In this document: positions 611 through 48,512 of the stretch, in pieces
Layout: each line of letters starts with the position of its first letter
Numbering within the stretch: position 1 is the stretch's first letter
Source: an uncultured bacterium
Lineage (GTDB): Bacteria > Planctomycetota > UBA1135 > GCA-002686595
NCBI GenBank assembly: GCA_943787795.1
Contig: CALSNU010000004.1
Coordinates: 320,001-384,000, forward strand
Reading direction: 5' to 3'
Length of the DNA stretch: 64,000 bases
Translations under genes and position numbers: made by a program
Notes under the pieces: generated by a model
Seen by the model: the letters and a program-made list of their open reading frames with translations, nothing else
The model's database searches: none
What the model was told of the DNA's origin: nothing

Positions 611-1010
<400 letters not shown>

Positions 1011-2805: not shown

Positions 2806-5436
2806 ATGATCGCAGCAAGCGCCTGGCTCGCCGCTCTCGCGGCCTTCGCCCTCCCCACCTCCGAGGACCCCCTCTTACCGCCCGCAGTCGAGGTCGGCGG
2901 CCCCGACGGGAGCTGGACCTGGCTGTCCGTGCCCCGGGACGGCGACGTGCACGTGCTCGCCCTGACCGCGATCTCACCGCTCATGCCGCGCGCCGAGGTG
3001 AGGCGCGGCGCGACCACGCCGGTGACGCCCGGACCCGCCCTCAGCGCCCAGGTGGAGGTCGCCCTGCGCGCCGGGAACCGTCCCCTGGACTGTGCGCCGC
3101 GTCTGACGGCTGTCGTCCACGGGGTCGACGAGGAGCTGCTCCTCGTGGCGGGGGCGCCGAGGGTGTTCCGCGACGCCCGCCCCCCCGCCGCCGCGGCCTC
3201 CAGCGCCGGCGCAGACCTGGCCCACCTCCTCCGACGGGACGACGAGGTCGTCGCGGGCGGGACCGTCTCGCTCGAGCCGCCGGCGTCCCCCCACTCCCAC
3301 GTCCTCCTGTTCGGCCTCCACCCGGGCGTCGTGCGGGCCGCCCCCTGGCCGATCGAGGTCGACGGCGAGCCGCACCTCCTGCACCCTGGCGCCACCCGCC
3401 CCCTCGTGCTCCCGGCCACCGGCGCCCCCATGGAGGTGAAGCTCGGCGACGCGCTCCTGGACGCCGTGCAGTTCGCGACCCTCGTCCAAGGCGACCTGGC
3501 GGAGTTCGAGGCGTTCCTCCACCAGGTCTCCCAGGCGGACGTACACGTCACCCGCGAGGACGGGTCGAGGTCCTTCAGATGGACCGACGCCGCGGGGCTC
3601 TCCGAGGACCGCCGCGTCGTGCCGGCGGGGCACCGGCGCGCCTACCGCTTCGCCATGGAGCCGCCGGGGCGCCTGCTCGAGGAGGGCGAGACCCTGGGCT
3701 TCGTGCTCCGGCCGGGCGTGCGGGGACGAGCCGCTGATCCCGCCCCCGTCGCGACGGCCCGGTCCCGCGACCACGCCCCGCGAGCCCTGGTCCGCCGTCC
3801 AACGGTCGACCTCACGCGGTTCACCGCGGCCGACTCCCCCGAGTCCCTCGTCGAGGTGACTCGCGGCGCCGGACTCGCCGCGTACACCCACGCCGAGGGG
3901 CCGCGCGAGCAGCTGGACATTCGCCCGACCATGGGCCCTGGCGCCGCCTGGGGCGACGTGAACGAGGACGGGGCCCTGGACCTCGTGCTCCTCCAGGGCG
4001 CGGGCCGCGAGGGCTGCGAACCTCTCTCGGACCGGCTCTTCCTCGGGCGCGGCGACGGGACCTTCGAGGACGGCACCGCGCGCGCGGGCCTCGGCCGCGG
4101 GGACGCGGGCATGGGCGCCCTGCTGGTGGACCTGAACGGGGACGGGCACCTGGACCTCTACTGCGCCAACTATGGTCGGGACCGCCTGTTCCTCGGCGCG
4201 GGGGATGCGACCTTCATTGAGGCGGAGGGCGTGCTCCCCGCGCTCTCCCTGTGGAGCGCCAGCGTCATCGCCGGCGACCCCGACGGGGACGGCGACCTGG
4301 ACCTCTACGTCACGAGCTACCTGGACTACGACCTGGAGAAGATGCCCCCCGCCGATGAGCTGGGTCTCTACCAGCGCGAGGACCCGGTCGAGATGCTGCC
4401 CTTCGCCTTCCCCGGCCAGCGGAACGTCTTCCTCCGCAGCCGGCTGGCGGACACTGGAGCCCTCGGGTTCGAGGACGCCACCGAAGAGCTCGGCCTCGCG
4501 GACGTCCAGGGCCGCGGGATGCAGGCGGTGTTCTGGGACTTCGACCTCGACGGAGACGAGGACCTGTACATCGCGAACGACGTCTCCTTCAACGTGCTCT
4601 TCCGCAACGAAGGGGACGGCACCTTCAAGGACGTCTCGTTCTCGACAGGCCTCGACGACCCGCGGGGCGGGATGGGCCTCGCCATCGGCGACGTGGACAA
4701 CGACGGGGATTCCGACGTCTTCCTGACCAACTGGCAGCTGGAGACCAACGCCCTCTACACGAACTCCGCCATCTCCAGCCTCACCCGAAAGCGGCGCCGC
4801 TCGACATTCCACGACACGACGGTGAAGAGCGGCTTCGGCCCCTCCGGCATCGGCAAGACCTCCTGGGGTGCGGAGTTCTTCGACCTCGAACTCGACGGCG
4901 ATCTCGACCTGTATGTGGCCAACGGTTACACGAGCCCTGACTACGAGAGCACCGGGACCTGCGTGGGCCAGACCGACCAGCTCTTCGTGGGTGACGGCAC
5001 GGGCAAGCTCAGGGAGGCCTGCACCCTCGGGCGCCGCGCCTTCAGCATCTCCCGAGCCTCACGGGGCGCGGTGGGCGCGGACCATGACCGCGACGGCGAC
5101 ATCGACCTGCTGGTGACCGCCAACAACGGCGGCGTCACGCTGCTCCGGAACGACGCGGAGCGCGCCGGACGCTGGCTCGGAGTCCGCCTCCGCCAGCCCG
5201 GCCTCAACCCCCACGCCATCGGCGCCCGGGTGGCCGTGGCCGCCAGCGACGGCTCACGGCGCCAGCAGGCCCTGCGCGCCGGTACCGGCTACCTGACCGG
5301 CAACGCCCCCGAGCTCCACTTCGGGCTAGGGCCCGTGGAAGAGTTCGTGGAGATCCAGGTCACCTGGCCCGACGGCGAGGTGTCGCGGCACATGTACGGC
5401 GCGGACGCGTGGGTGGTCATCGAGCGGGAGGGCTGA
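2806..5436 (+). CDS. Secreted CRTAC1/ASPIC-UnbV family FG-GAP repeat protein
   Basis: Signal peptide, repeated D.(N/D)GDG.LDLY motifs, C-terminal N..AIGARV and GTGYLTGN.PELHFGLG. Confidence 0.9.
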   Translation: MIAASAWLAALAAFALPTSEDPLLPPAVEVGGPDGSWTWLSVPRDGDVHVLALTAISPLMPRAEVRRGATTPVTPGPALSAQVEVALRAGNRPLDCAPRLTAVVHGVDEELLLVAGAPRVFRDARPPAAAASSAGADLAHLLRRDDEVVAGGTVSLEPPASPHSHVLLFGLHPGVVRAAPWPIEVDGEPHLLHPGATRPLVLPATGAPMEVKLGDALLDAVQFATLVQGDLAEFEAFLHQVSQADVHVTREDGSRSFRWTDAAGLSEDRRVVPAGHRRAYRFAMEPPGRLLEEGETLGFVLRPGVRGRAADPAPVATARSRDHAPRALVRRPTVDLTRFTAADSPESLVEVTRGAGLAAYTHAEGPREQLDIRPTMGPGAAWGDVNEDGALDLVLLQGAGREGCEPLSDRLFLGRGDGTFEDGTARAGLGRGDAGMGALLVDLNGDGHLDLYCANYGRDRLFLGAGDATFIEAEGVLPALSLWSASVIAGDPDGDGDLDLYVTSYLDYDLEKMPPADELGLYQREDPVEMLPFAFPGQRNVFLRSRLADTGALGFEDATEELGLADVQGRGMQAVFWDFDLDGDEDLYIANDVSFNVLFRNEGDGTFKDVSFSTGLDDPRGGMGLAIGDVDNDGDSDVFLTNWQLETNALYTNSAISSLTRKRRRSTFHDTTVKSGFGPSGIGKTSWGAEFFDLELDGDLDLYVANGYTSPDYESTGTCVGQTDQLFVGDGTGKLREACTLGRRAFSISRASRGAVGADHDRDGDIDLLVTANNGGVTLLRNDAERAGRWLGVRLRQPGLNPHAIGARVAVAASDGSRRQQALRAGTGYLTGNAPELHFGLGPVEEFVEIQVTWPDGEVSRHMYGADAWVVIEREG

Positions 5437-5461: not shown

Positions 5462-5947
5462 TCAGAGCGCGGCTTCGATCGCCGCGGTCAGCTCGGGCGC
5501 GGCGGGGTCCGTCGTGGGCTCGAAGCGGGCGAGCACCTCGCCGTTCTTGCCGATGAGGAACTTGCCGAAGTTCCACTGGACGTCGCCGGGCCCCTCGGGG
5601 CTTGTGGGCTGCTGGGTGAGCCAGGCATACAGGTCGTGGCGGTCAGGACCGTTCACGTCGATCTTCCCGAAGAGCGGGAAGGTCACCCCGTAGGTCGTGC
5701 TACAGAAGGTCTTGATCTCCTCGGCGGACCCGGGCTCCTGCCCCTTGAACTGGTTACAGGGGAAGCCGAGCACAACGAGGCCACGGTCCCGGTACTGCTC
5801 GGCGAGCTTCTCGAGCCCTGCGTACTGCGGGGTCAAGCCGCAGCGCGAGGCCACGTTCACCACGAGGAGGACCTTGCCGCTGAAGGAGTCGAAGGAGCAG
5901 TCGGCGCCGTCGATGGTCGGCACGCTGAAGTCGTGGAAGGTGGTCAT
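5462..5947 (-). CDS. Glutathione peroxidase family, 2-Cys type
   Basis: VNVASRCGLT (TGC Cys), GFPCNQF, second Cys in TFCSTTY, WNFGKFLI. Confidence 0.95.
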   Translation of the reverse strand: MTTFHDFSVPTIDGADCSFDSFSGKVLLVVNVASRCGLTPQYAGLEKLAEQYRDRGLVVLGFPCNQFKGQEPGSAEEIKTFCSTTYGVTFPLFGKIDVNGPDRHDLYAWLTQQPTSPEGPGDVQWNFGKFLIGKNGEVLARFEPTTDPAAPELTAAIEAAL

Positions 5948-6067
5948 AGGATCGAACTCAACGTGCGGGGAGGGGCCGCCGCTGCGGCCGCGAAGGAGCT
6001 TGAAGGCGAGTTTCTGGATGCGTCCCATGCCAACAGACTGACGTCCGTCCGTCGGGCACACCAGGGT

Positions 6068-7033
6068 TCAACGGGAGGCCAACCAAAGATCCCGGAAGCG
6101 CGCCGCGAAGCGCAGGGGGAAGTCGTCGGCCTGATCCGCGCAGTGCGGGGAGACGAGGATTCGCGGGTGACGCCACAGGGGATTCAACTCCGGCAGGGGC
6201 TCCTCCTCGAACACATCCAGCCAGGCCCCCGCGACGTTCTGGTCCAGCGCCCTCAGCAGCCCCCCCTCCGAGAGGATCGCACCCCTCGCGGCATTCAGCA
6301 CGAGCGCCCCCTCGGGGAGCCACGCGAGCTCCTTGGCGCCGATCCATCCCCGCGTCTCGGGGGTCAGCGGTAGGTGAATCGAGAGGACGTCCGCGCGGGG
6401 CAGGAGTCCGGCGAGCGCCCTCGGCTCGTACATCTCATCCGCCTCCTCGTGGGCGGCTCCCGAGCGGTTCACCCCGAGCACCCCCATCCCCATCGCCCGC
6501 GCCCGCCGCGCGACCTCTGCGCCTGTCCTGCCGAACCCGAGCACCAGCATGGTCCGACCCGCGAGCGGCCGGAACCGCGTCGGGGACCAGCGAGCCTCGC
6601 GCTGCTCACGGAGGTGCTCGTTCAGCCCCGTCCCCAGGGTGAACAGGCCCGCCATGACCCGCTCGGCGAGGAAAGGCGCGAGCACCCCCTTTGAGTCTGT
6701 GACCGTGACCTGCGCGGGATCCCAAGCCGGCAGGTGGTCCCGTCCGGAGCCGCCCACGTGAAACCAACGGACGCTCTTCCAGCGCAGAGCCTCGCCATGG
6801 CTCGGTCCCGAGAAGCTCGCCGTCTTGATGGAGAAGACGACCTGGGGGTCATGCTCCACGAGGCACCGGGCCACCTCGCCCGGCTCACCTGCTGCCGCCC
6901 ACTCGAGGCCAGGGCAGTCGCTCAGCGCCTCCAGCACCTCCCCCGGCTCGGAGTGAAGGAGGAGCGCTCGGAGAGGGCCCTCCCCCTTGGTCGAAGGGGC
7001 GGAGTCGCTGACCGGACCGTGGGCCGCGTTCAT
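6068..7033 (-). CDS. D-isomer-specific 2-hydroxyacid dehydrogenase
   Basis: GFGRTG, HLPLTPETRG, NAARG, LDVFEEEPL, SPHCA; start overlaps the upstream stop (ATGA). Confidence 0.9.
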   Translation of the reverse strand: MNAAHGPVSDSAPSTKGEGPLRALLLHSEPGEVLEALSDCPGLEWAAAGEPGEVARCLVEHDPQVVFSIKTASFSGPSHGEALRWKSVRWFHVGGSGRDHLPAWDPAQVTVTDSKGVLAPFLAERVMAGLFTLGTGLNEHLREQREARWSPTRFRPLAGRTMLVLGFGRTGAEVARRARAMGMGVLGVNRSGAAHEEADEMYEPRALAGLLPRADVLSIHLPLTPETRGWIGAKELAWLPEGALVLNAARGAILSEGGLLRALDQNVAGAWLDVFEEEPLPELNPLWRHPRILVSPHCADQADDFPLRFAARFRDLWLASR

Positions 7034-7617
7034 CGGGCCGGCCTCGGTGGCATCTCAGGTTCGAGCTCGACGTCGACGCCGTCGGCGATCCGGTTGATGT
7101 AGTTGAAGTAGGCCGTCACCTGGATCAGGTCGTGGATCGCCACGTCGTCGAAGCCTGCACGCCTCAGCCCCTCGATGTCGGCCTCCCGCATGGCGCCAGG
7201 GCTCCGCGTGAGCTTCTCTGCGTAGGCCGCGAGCGCGCGATCCGCGGCGTCCAGCTCGCCCTCGCGCCAGTCCGTCGCCACCGCGGTGACAAAGCGCTCC
7301 CGCTGCTCCTCACCCAGCCCCTTCCACTCCTCGTGGACCTCGGCACGGAGGTCCGCCTCATGGCTGAGGGTTCAGTAGTGGCAGTCGTTGGCGCGGCTGA
7401 CAATGGTCGCGACCATCTCTCGCTGGCGCCGGCTGAGCCCCTCCGGCGCATACATGATCTTCTGGTAGAGGCCGAGCGAGGCGTCGAGGACCGCCGGCGC
7501 GAGGCTCTGGGCGCGGACGATGCCGAACACTCGCCCAGCGCGAGCCACGGCGGCCTCGTAGCTCCTGGCGAGACGGCCTGTGGCCTCGGAGATGGAGATG
7601 GTGCGAATCCAGGGCAT
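7030..7617 (-). CDS. AhpD/CMD peroxidase-related protein with probable selenocysteine at in-frame UGA 7372-7374 (195 aa)
   Basis: Track ORFs 7372..7689 and 7030..7281 share a frame; readthrough gives LSRRQREMVATIVSRANDCHY-U-TLSH...YAEKLT...AYFNYINRIADG, the AhpD CxxC-xxx-H signature. Confidence 0.88.
7326..7371 (-). promoter_or_regulatory. Putative bacterial SECIS element
   Basis: mRNA after UGA: ACCCUCAGCCAUGAGGC-GGACCUC-CGUGCC-GAGGUCC-ACGAGG; perfect 7-bp upper stem (7335-7354), GU in the apical loop, 24 nt between UGA and loop. Confidence 0.7.
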
Positions 7618-7725
7618 CTTGGTCTTGGCGTTGGGCCCGGAGATGTGGTCAGGACCGTGAGGAGAGAGCGGAGCCGGACGGAGCGGCACGCTCTGCGAGG
7701 GCCCCGGGCGCCGTGCGCGCGAAGG

Positions 7726-8232
7726 TCAGAGCCTACGGTCCCGTCTGCGGGCGAGGTTATCCACCCAGGCGCCCAGGATCATCGCCCGGCGTTGCTTCAC
7801 CAGCCTCAGCTCCTCGAAGGCAGCCGCGCGCTCATGGTCGCCGAGCCGAACCAGGAACTGCGCGTAGTCCCCATACCACCGGCTGACGGTCTCCTCGGCG
7901 CTCCGGACCAGCCGTAGGGCGGGGCGCGCCCCGGTCACCCAGGTGCTCTGGACCAGGAGGCGCGCCAGGATCCGGCGCCGAAGACTGGTCCGGCGCGGCC
8001 GCCCCCCCATCCCACGCATGAGCTCCTGAACGATCGCCACCAGGTCCACGCCCTCACGATTCAGCTCGGTGGCGAGGCCGGCGAGCTCGGGGTCGCGGGC
8101 ACGTCGAGCGATGTGATCGTAGACCGCCCTCGCGCCAATCTCACTCAGGAGCGTGCGACGGAGATCCTTCAGCAGCGAGCGGTAGGCCCCCTGCTGCTCC
8201 ACTGGAATCACCTTGAGCCCGCGCAGCTCCAA
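7726..8232 (-). CDS. Ferritin-like four-helix protein (Coq7-like) with degenerate metal ligands
   Basis: SEIGARAVY and AEETVSRWY helices match the ferritin-like pattern; ExxH motifs absent. Confidence 0.6.
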   Translation of the reverse strand: MELRGLKVIPVEQQGAYRSLLKDLRRTLLSEIGARAVYDHIARRARDPELAGLATELNREGVDLVAIVQELMRGMGGRPRRTSLRRRILARLLVQSTWVTGARPALRLVRSAEETVSRWYGDYAQFLVRLGDHERAAAFEELRLVKQRRAMILGAWVDNLARRRDRRL

Positions 8233-8236
8233 GCGA

Positions 8237-9451
8237 TCAAGCGTCCCTTGCTGGACGCATCTTCACGAAGCCCTCGAGCGTTCGTTCGGGGTCGAACTCC
8301 ACCTCGCTGGTCAGGCCCTCGCTGGTCAGGCCCTCGACGGGCACCTGAAAGAGCTCCCTGCGCCGGGTGACCTCCAGCGTCCGCTTCAGCAGCTCGCCGC
8401 CCTCGACCTTGATGGTCACCGGGAGCGTGAACGCGTAGGCCGGGGCCGCGCCCGGCGCCACGCGCTGCAGCTGATCCACGCGGAGGAGCAATCGACCTCG
8501 CGCGGCGTCAACCCTCCACGAGGTCTCCACGAGGGGGCCGCCGGGGCCCCTCAGCCAGCTACGAACGAACGCCTCCCCCTGACCCCCGAAGGCCGTCGCG
8601 ACCTCGTCGATGCCCTGCGGCTCGCCCCCGACCCCCGCGTCCACCACGGCATGGAGGGCGCTTGTGAAGTCGAGCTCCCCGAGCACGTCCCGGAGGCGCA
8701 GCCAGCGAGGTACTGCCCAGGCCGCGTCCGGAGAAGGCCGATACCACCCCTCCGCCTCGAGCTCCGAGGCACCTTCCGCGTCCTGCTCCCGGAACATCTC
8801 AAAGAGGAGGTCGGCGAGGGTTGGGATCACCGGGTGCTCTTCATCCATCCGCGGCGTCACGAGCAGGCCGAACCAGGCGCGCGCGCAGGCTCCGGCCAGC
8901 GGCTGGCCTGCAAGCGGGTCCCGATGAAGCAGCTGCTGTTCGGCAAACGCGATGAAGGACGCCCTCGCGGCAGCTCCCACTCCCTCATCTGCCACCAGCC
9001 CGAGGGCAACGTCCCGCGGATCAATGGCCTGGAGCGGGAAGGCCCGAGGGGTCTGCCACGCGAAGGCGCGGTCTGCCGTCTCCACTTCAGCGACGATGCG
9101 AGCCCGGCTAGAGGGGTCGAGAGGCCTGGGTAGCCAGGTCTCGCCCTCGACCAGTACCAGGTCGCGCGCCGAGAGCCGACGCAGGTCACCGGAGGGCCTC
9201 GCCGGGTCGACCACCGCCACGGCGATGGACCCGGCCACGTTCTGCGCGCTGTCCACTCCGAGCGAGTAGCGCGCCTCCGCCACCACGACGCTACGGCCGC
9301 CAGCCTCTCGAGGCGACGGTTCGAATTCCACGCCGGGGGACGATGCGCACCCGACCAGGATCAGGCCAGGAAGAGACCGGCTGCCCCGGAGTACGGCGAT
9401 CGCTAGAATCCTCGCTCGCGAGGCATTGGGTTGGCCTTGGTTCTGCTCCAT
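8237..9451 (-). CDS. Compact M1 aminopeptidase-like protein lacking HExxH, possible lipoprotein
   Basis: WLPRPLDPSSRA, ARAWFGLLVT, LRDVLGELDF, FVRSWLRGPGGP, VEFDPE; lipobox-like LILVGC; start uncertain. Confidence 0.65.
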   Translation of the reverse strand: MEQNQGQPNASRARILAIAVLRGSRSLPGLILVGCASSPGVEFEPSPREAGGRSVVVAEARYSLGVDSAQNVAGSIAVAVVDPARPSGDLRRLSARDLVLVEGETWLPRPLDPSSRARIVAEVETADRAFAWQTPRAFPLQAIDPRDVALGLVADEGVGAAARASFIAFAEQQLLHRDPLAGQPLAGACARAWFGLLVTPRMDEEHPVIPTLADLLFEMFREQDAEGASELEAEGWYRPSPDAAWAVPRWLRLRDVLGELDFTSALHAVVDAGVGGEPQGIDEVATAFGGQGEAFVRSWLRGPGGPLVETSWRVDAARGRLLLRVDQLQRVAPGAAPAYAFTLPVTIKVEGGELLKRTLEVTRRRELFQVPVEGLTSEGLTSEVEFDPERTLEGFVKMRPARDA

Positions 9452-9505
9452 CGGATTGGCCCGAGGCGTGAACCGCGGGGCCCAGATCGTAGCGTCGCGC
9501 GCCCC

Positions 9506-10279
9506 ATGGACTTCCTCCTCGAATGCATCGGTTTCCCGCCATCGGTCACCGAGGACGAGATCGTCGCCCTCGCACGTGAACGTGGAGAGCCGACGCCGTG
9601 GCGGGGAAGCGCCGATGACCATCGGATGCTCCCCCTCGGCGGTGGGCTTCAGGTCCGTGCCGATAGAGATACTGCGCGCGGGTACTGGACCCTGGCGCCG
9701 TTCTACGACGTCCCCCATCGCCTGAGGCTCTCGGTGGAGACGGTCGTCAGGCCCCCGGAGTCCCCGCACGACGCGCTGCTCACCGGATGGGCTGCTCCCC
9801 CGCCGCCTTGGTCCGAAGAGACGGAGCCCGGCGCGTACCGTCTATCGGCCTGGATCTCCGACGCCAGGCGGCTGGGACGGCGCGTGGAGGCCGGAAGGGT
9901 CCTTGCCGTCTCCGTGGCCGGCTTCGCGCTGACCGTGGACCGAATCACCCCGCCAGAGCGCCTCCCGGGGGAGCGTGAGCCGGAGGCCTCGACCACCGCA
10001 GACATCCGACCGATCGGGGGCGCCGGGTCGCCGGGAGGGTGCTGTGACGTCTCCCTGCGCGTCCAGATGGTCCGACGCATCGCCAACGAGGTGACCGGTG
10101 AGCCGGTCGAGATGGTGGTCTGCGCAGCCCCGGAGCGACCCCTGGTGCTCTTCCTCTCACGCTGGCAACTCGAGCGTGACGGGCTGCCAGCGCCACGGGC
10201 CGGCTCGTGGATCGAGGGGACTTTCCTGATCAGCGGGCGCCTCTCCGGCGGGCTGCAGCCCGCCCGCCCCCGGCCCTGA
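9506..10279 (+). CDS. Hypothetical protein
   Basis: 257-aa ORF MDFLLECIGF with globular composition, divergent from the previous gene. Confidence 0.7.
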   Translation: MDFLLECIGFPPSVTEDEIVALARERGEPTPWRGSADDHRMLPLGGGLQVRADRDTARGYWTLAPFYDVPHRLRLSVETVVRPPESPHDALLTGWAAPPPPWSEETEPGAYRLSAWISDARRLGRRVEAGRVLAVSVAGFALTVDRITPPERLPGEREPEASTTADIRPIGGAGSPGGCCDVSLRVQMVRRIANEVTGEPVEMVVCAAPERPLVLFLSRWQLERDGLPAPRAGSWIEGTFLISGRLSGGLQPARPRP

Positions 10280-48023: not shown

Positions 48024-48239
48024 ACCCGTTAGAGATCGGCTCTCGGAGCCTCCGGACTTAGCTCACAGACGCACGGACCGCCCCCTCGCCTCGGATCGAG
48101 ACTCCCTGCCGCTTTGCCCGCGGCGGACAGGCCCCTGGGCACGTCCAGCTTCGCGAGCGACGGAGATTAATCCGGTCGCGGGCTTGACGACCATTGGGCG
48201 GTAGCGCCAAGTCAGTGCGTTCCTTTTACAAATTCAGCC

Positions 48240-48486
48240 AAGGCAGCGGTGCTCCTCCAGCAAGGAGGAGTGAAACGGGAAGTACGGCGGACCCCTCCAG
48301 GGTCCATGACCGACGCGGCCCCCGCCACTGTAGACACGCCTCGGCCATCGCGATGAACCACTGACCCTGAGCGCTCCGCGCTCACCAAGGGATCGGGAAG
48401 GTGCGACGGCCACGGACGCCCTGCGTTCCCCTCCCGGGGGACCCAGGAAACCCTGACGTGCCAGCCAGGAGACCGGCCACTGCCTT
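48240..48486 (+). promoter_or_regulatory. Cobalamin riboswitch
   Basis: CGGTGC..AAACGGGAAG, GCGGCCCCCGCCACTGTA, CCACTG..GGGAAGG B12 box, AGCCAGGAGACCGGCC; AAGGCAG/CTGCCTT closes P1. Confidence 0.95.
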
Positions 48487-48512
48487 CCATTGATCGTGCT
48501 TCGGAGGGAAGT

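Follow-up and report, generated by a model that had tools for sequence, protein, structure and literature searches.

An in-frame UGA predicted to encode selenocysteine in an AhpD-like gene of an uncultured planctomycete

The 64,000-nucleotide stretch of an uncultured planctomycete genome analysed here (hereafter the window) contains an AhpD-like gene interrupted by a single in-frame TGA, which raises the question of whether this codon encodes selenocysteine (Sec), ends a shorter protein, is read as another amino acid, or marks a pseudogene or a sequencing error. The gene (7030..7617, minus strand) opens with an ATG at 7617, runs through 81 codons to a TGA at 7374-7372 (7372..7374 on the forward strand), continues for 113 codons and ends at a final TGA at 7032-7030, and homologs align with its translation from residue 1. 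Read-through of these 195 codons plus stop yields the 195-residue product proposed in a first-pass annotation of this DNA. The translation around the only internal stop is NDCHY*TLSH, which places the TGA at codon 82, within a predicted C79-H-Y-U82 motif and in the position that the second Cys takes in the AhpD motif; the first-pass annotation had recognized this position without giving the strand. Its expectation that gene callers would split the gene is borne out by public catalogues, in which the gene is stored as separate pieces of 81 and 83 amino acids.

The AhpD-like reading frame and its conservation

With U at codon 82, residues 2-187 of the protein match the AhpD-like model TIGR01926 with 135.2 bits (cut-off 81.8), and a TIGR01926 search of the genome that allows read-through of the stop gives 126.8 bits at this gene. 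The AhpD core model TIGR00778 (39.9 bits, cut-off 27.8) and Pfam CMD (46.9 bits) match as well. Of the initial family call, AhpD/CMD, the AhpD part stands, as TIGR01926 is exceeded, while the CMD part does not, TIGR01926 being an AhpD-like model and not that of the CMD decarboxylase.

A contig from a separate study that spans positions 7081-8300 differs from the window in four letters, none of them at 7372-7374, and two RNA-library contigs cross the TGA site without a differing letter; the latter are assembled, are patchy over the AhpD-like gene and also over its flanks, and confirm the letters rather than transcription. Because these contigs carry the same TGA, a sequencing error at 7372-7374 is excluded. 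The wider proposal of a pseudogene, with the TGA arising by nonsense mutation or error, has nothing in its favour beyond the stop codon itself and was rejected: the TGA is found in an independent DNA run, in the two RNA-library contigs and in relatives as distant as 31% identity, and the frames on both sides of it are intact. We consider the probability of this proposal negligible, and with the Sec machinery also found in the genome (see below), the error or nonsense alternative raised at first pass is ruled out.

A match to the AhpD-like gene was identified in 36 of 41 related genomes, and all 30 of the top loci retrieved from these 41 genomes carry TGA at codon 82. In a sample of the phylum, 79 of 201 genomes contain matches at E <= 1e-15; every one of the 101 matches contains a TGA, and in 28 further loci examined for its placement the TGA lay at codon 82 every time. 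Of a combined set of 115 loci, which is partly duplicated (some genomes occur twice) and reduces to 46 at <=65% mutual identity, 113 cover the site, with 99 TGA, 13 Cys codons and one Ala. The 14 loci with a codon other than TGA are 19-35% identical. Wherever a stop occupies codon 82 it is TGA (99/99 loci), never TAA or TAG. Furthermore, Glu67, Cys79, Tyr81 and His86, the last of which lies downstream of the TGA, are each kept in all 46 diverse TGA-bearing relatives. Eight same-genus genomes encode an extra Cys two residues after the putative Sec (C-H-Y-U-T-C-S-H), a position held by Leu in the AhpD-like gene of the window.

The predicted SECIS hairpin and the selenocysteine machinery

Downstream of the TGA, codons 88-95 contain a predicted bacterial SECIS hairpin (7335..7354, minus strand) with a 7-bp stem (GGACCUC, 7354-7348, and GAGGUCC, 7341-7335) and a 6-nt loop (CGUGCC, 7347-7342) with G at loop position 2 followed by U, 24 nt separating UGA and loop. 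The perfect hairpin, its loop GU and its spacing are thus as first described, and the structure is conserved across relatives. Criteria for bacterial SECIS elements given in a 2026 review (PMC13188914) comprise a loop of 3-9 nt, a stem of 4-16 bp, a distance of 16-37 nt from the UGA, a G at the first or second loop position and an MFE <= -7.5 kcal/mol. The AhpD-like hairpin lies within all of these limits, with the loop, stem, G and spacing given above and an MFE of -11.4 kcal/mol. It appears in the fold of 47 nt (z -2.45; 5 of 200 shuffles equally good) and in those of 65 and 116 nt (z -0.19 and -0.73), and is missing from the best structure at 85 nt (z -0.99). A simple hairpin model is passed by 14,721 of the 107,851 TGA triplets in the six frames of the genome (13.6%). 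Taken alone, the hairpin is weak evidence for Sec, and neither folding nor the simple model was used as main evidence for a SECIS element; it is raised above chance because it is conserved and codon-constrained in relatives.

As the hairpin encodes a conserved D-L-R-x-E-V stretch, a synonymous test was used to ask whether the RNA is conserved more than the protein requires, based on 46 relatives with a mutual identity of at most 65%. Arg91 is encoded by CGT in 21, CGG in 19 and CGC in one of 41 of these relatives, whereas at comparison Arg codons outside the hairpin CGC accounts for 27 of 46 (Arg176) and 23 of 44 (Arg152). Leu90 is CTC in 40 of 42, and GTG is used for Val94 in none of 25, against a background of about 45%. 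When amino acids were held and codons redrawn 1000 times, the complete six-pair core stem, present in 27 of 46 relatives, was expected in a mean of 5.5 (maximum 12), and a G[G/U] loop, present in 40 of 46, in a mean of 14.5 (maximum 24). An earlier pass over 56 distinct loci had the same outcome (42/56, null 8.3). Across 40 aligned sequences, 90.8% of the cells of the six core pairs are paired, compared with 24-51% in slid registers, and in 13 cells both sides have changed (2.2 on average after shuffling); this pairing test uses the structure from the AhpD-like gene itself, which favours that structure. Eight of the 46 diverse relatives retain four or fewer of the six core pairs. Judged by this codon usage, the codons of the predicted hairpin are under synonymous constraint, and a signal this clean could provide a usable SECIS profile for Planctomycetota.

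The source genome (4.7 Mb, 85% complete) encodes the Sec machinery for which a search had been proposed at first pass. SelA (456.6 bits), selB (327.9 bits) and selD (327.2 bits) all exceed their cut-offs, selD carrying one in-frame TGA of its own, and a tRNA-Sec (selC; 69 bits) with a UCA anticodon completes the set. Sec use in Planctomycetes has been described before (PMC4807772). Within the phylum, selA is present in 77 of the 79 genomes carrying the AhpD-like gene, which occurs in only 2 of 49 selA-less genomes (Fisher p 3e-10, a value overstated by kinship). One of the two exceptions (G089) encodes selB over cut-off and has tRNA-Sec matches, because of which its selA is probably just unassembled. 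The other (G131, 90% complete) has two TGA-bearing AhpD-like matches, neither selA nor selB over cut-off, and no more than a marginal tRNA-Sec match (50.6 bits), at a cut-off that 5 of 14 control genomes also pass. In a further phylum relative (G132, C15:64551-66451), the AhpD-like gene directly adjoins selA, tail to tail.

These data also bear on the view that the UGA is a true stop in a conserved split gene encoding two polypeptides of 81 and about 83-110 amino acids. Catalogues do hold the pieces as separate proteins, and among the 120 homologs listed 90 are C-terminal halves only, next to 18 with Cys and 8 with Trp at the site. Against this, the nearest in-frame start beyond the TGA is a GTG at 7281, 31 codons on, the restart distance ranges from 1 to 75 codons in 45 of 46 relatives, which indicates no conserved restart, and restarting would lose the invariant His86. 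Together with the exclusive use of TGA as the stop and the tracking of selA by the gene, this makes a split gene very unlikely. Reassignment of TGA to Trp (or Gly) throughout the genome, or read-through as Trp at codon 82, might be suggested by the eight listed homologs with Trp at the site, which most simply reflect gene calling under a TGA=W code and were set aside. TGA ends 889 of the 1,086 long ORFs of the genome, including selB and the AhpD-like gene itself, and genome-wide reassignment is excluded because TGA is the normal stop; moreover, Trp at the catalytic Cys position would abolish the redox pair. A Trp reading in either form is therefore extremely improbable.

Insertion of Sec at codon 82 is, by contrast with these rivals, very likely, because the frame, the hairpin, the Sec machinery, the conservation of residues, the synonymous constraint and the co-occurrence with selA all point to it. 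SelB carrying Sec-tRNA would bind the hairpin loop and deliver Sec at the UGA, as in the bacterial Sec pathway.

Predicted function and relation to known proteins

An AlphaFold model of the AhpD-like protein, built from 44 sequences, has a pLDDT of 96.8. Its best fold match is AhpD of D. radiodurans (6k40, TM 0.83), followed by other peroxidase-related proteins, with the debrominase-type protein Bmp8 lower, and the closest studied homolog is just 35% identical. In line with the pairing check suggested at first pass, the solved Cys homologs 2oyo, 6k40 and 2pfx have the second Cys of their CxYC motif aligned to the TGA codon. DR1765 of D. radiodurans (6k40) and 2oyo of D. geothermalis share the fold (TM 0.83, rmsd 2.3-2.5 A) and the E...CxYC...H motif at 33-35% identity, but have Cys where the gene of the window has TGA; the AhpD-like protein of the window also carries, unlike the solved homologs, a short inserted helical segment following residue 94. 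The predicted model and the alignment place a Glu...Cys-x-x-Cys-x-x-x-His relay on an all-helical fold, with Sec replacing the second Cys. The predicted proton-relay residues Glu67, Cys79, Tyr81, Sec82 and His86 (7360..7419, minus strand), assigned from relatives and from spacing, are spaced as in the relays of M. tuberculosis AhpD (Glu118/Cys130/His132/Cys133/His137), which matches in the core only (E 1.4e-4), and P. aeruginosa PA0269 (Glu36/Cys48/Tyr50/Cys51/His55; PMC3141380).

The reading we hold with high confidence is that of an intact 195-codon AhpD-like gene whose UGA codon 82 likely encodes Sec and whose product is a predicted Cys79-x-x-Sec82 thiol/selenol reductase in oxidative-stress defence. 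By analogy with Cys homologs, Sec82 would substitute for the second member of the AhpD Cys pair and, assisted by the Glu67/His86 relay, could cycle with Cys79 via a selenenyl-sulfide while reducing peroxide or an oxidised partner protein. The Cys homolog DR_1765 protects against H2O2 through its CxxC, according to a review (PMC8945050). The same source describes the re-reduction of AhpD by lipoyl proteins with NADH, and the AhpD-like protein would be recycled in this way, through a lipoyl protein and lipoamide dehydrogenase. A lipoamide dehydrogenase over cut-off is encoded in the source genome, which, this being a common enzyme, proves no link. The best TIGR03137 score for AhpC in the 85%-complete genome is 142 bits against a cut-off of 272, and a role of the protein as AhpC adaptor is without direct support because no AhpC exceeds that cut-off. 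Eleven AhpC/TSA-family matches were identified in the genome, four of which hold a TGA.

Thyroid deiodinases use Sec, and Bmp8 is reportedly a debrominase on the AhpD fold. Sec could thus be inserted into an enzyme acting on a different substrate, for example an organohalide as in Bmp8, an alternative that concerns function only, shares the Sec reading and seems unlikely to us. The Sec form would then, with similarly low probability, not be a general peroxidase but a Bmp8-like reductive dehalogenase of AhpD fold that depends on selenium, using Sec as the deiodinases do, and, no less doubtfully, one kept as a selenoprotein only across marine Planctomycetota, in which all 101 phylum matches carry the TGA. 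Bmp8 structures do match the model (6ohi and 6ohj, TM 0.71-0.72, E about 2e-5), as does the profile (E 3e-5), DNA of this stretch is found in marine metagenome runs, and the genome shows no AhpC over cut-off. Bmp8, a Cys enzyme that has the fold in common, is just 20-21% identical and ranks well under the peroxidase-related proteins (27 vs 168 bits). Nothing here points to a shared substrate, and the annotated neighbours include no halogen-related gene but a glutathione peroxidase and a ferritin-like gene.

AhpD-like selenoproteins form a known class, as stated in the first-pass annotation, and one that has been listed as a predicted family since 2005. AhpD-like CxxU selenoproteins (COG2128 / TIGR01926) were represented by 27 sequences in the Sargasso Sea survey of that year (PMC1088965), and 'AhpD-like 1' by 299 sequences in the GOS survey (PMC2398784). 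Table 1 of the 2026 review (PMC13188914) classes the TIGR01926 AhpD-like family as 'predicted with high confidence' rather than as experimentally verified, and BSepDB includes an AhpD-like family (PMC13326102). The gene of the window shares with this family the same model over cut-off, the CxxU motif, the coding-region SECIS and the marine source, and shows no difference of kind. The AhpD-related CFYUT selenoprotein (NF041238) and the CMD-like selenoprotein of PF02627 are related CxxU proteins of the same superfamily; scoring 65.6 bits where the 357-position NF041238 model requires 175, the protein of the window is not a member of the former. It is an ordinary member of a known selenoprotein family and amounts to little as a discovery. 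Its annotation can be corrected to one gene where public catalogues show two fragments. The 81-aa RefSeq record WP_419191136.1 is a piece of this kind from a named cultured relative, whose AhpD-like protein is 66% identical and shares both TGA and hairpin; this relative would permit a first experimental check of the still-predicted family.

Gene neighbourhood and further candidate selenoproteins

Neighbouring genes were compared in flanks of 1.5-3 kb. Directly downstream of the AhpD-like gene lies a D-2-hydroxyacid dehydrogenase family gene (6068..7033, minus strand), the ATG of which overlaps the AhpD-like stop (ATGA) and which, among 18 same-genus loci, adjoins the AhpD-like gene in 15, and in no locus outside the genus. 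It is followed on the same strand by a glutathione peroxidase family gene (5462..6061) of the Cys form without TGA, found inside the 1.5-kb flank in 12 of the 18 same-genus loci; the order AhpD-like / 2-hydroxyacid dehydrogenase / glutathione peroxidase is kept within the genus only. Upstream, a 168-aa gene (7726..8232, minus strand) has no Pfam or NCBIfam match and appears ferritin-like / COQ7-like from language-model features only, COQ7 making up 25-77% and rubrerythrin 12-26% of the members of its Atlas clusters. It adjoins the AhpD-like gene in 17 of 18 same-genus loci, and the pairing is found mostly within the family. A sigma-70 promoter scan returned no sites, and one terminator-like site was found, which is chance level.

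Further along, ORFs at 8237-9769 (minus strand) and 9431-10279 (plus strand), both without a Pfam match, share about 340 nt in antisense orientation as called. Each is conserved among loci of the genus, and their true starts probably lie further inside. The window also contains an RNase P RNA (615-1010, plus strand, 270 bits) and a cobalamin riboswitch (48230-48495, plus strand, 72.5 bits), both identified with Rfam.

Elsewhere in the source genome, likely selenoproteins include an adjacent pair of thioredoxin-like UxxC proteins (C6:69376 and C6:70103). Another group of likely selenoprotein loci (C2:479457, C1:189924, C7:99960, C4:645494, C8:38656, C2:109390 and C5:186287) includes thioredoxin-like UxxC proteins, a DsbD-thioredoxin fusion and SelD, as well as what we take, from their motifs, to be a formate dehydrogenase, a PrdB-like protein and a metal-binding protein. 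The genome appears rich in selenoproteins.

Outside the window, FG-GAP/ASPIC-UnbV (CRTAC1-like) proteins of about 1,000 amino acids contain an in-frame TGA. The source genome encodes three such paralogs with TGA (C8:5572, C3:277088 and C1:1248419-1248982) and two with CAG. Of 29 loci from relatives, 25 carry the TGA at the aligned codon; in one it is displaced by two codons, and three lack it. The genes share a conserved hairpin about 18 nt downstream of the TGA, and forms without TGA have Gln or Asp at the codon, not Cys. A selenoprotein family of this kind is absent from the 119-family table of the 2026 review (PMC13188914), and none appeared among the papers listed in one literature search. 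From their sequences, these proteins are a candidate undescribed selenoprotein family, which looks more novel than the AhpD-like gene. An 876-aa ORF in the window (2806-5436, plus strand), which lacks an in-frame TGA, is a weak match (26%) to the FG-GAP/ASPIC-UnbV query.

In-frame TGAs near a Cys and accompanied by a hairpin also occur at C6:581711, which has a weak DsbD_N match, at C2:620327, which encodes FG-GAP repeats, and at C2:428135 and C2:247580, which match no family. Finally, a minus-strand frame on C4 without a Pfam or NCBIfam match contains two in-frame TGAs in a repeated context (C4:265626 and C4:265386), each with a hairpin whose loop starts with CGUG, as in the AhpD-like gene.
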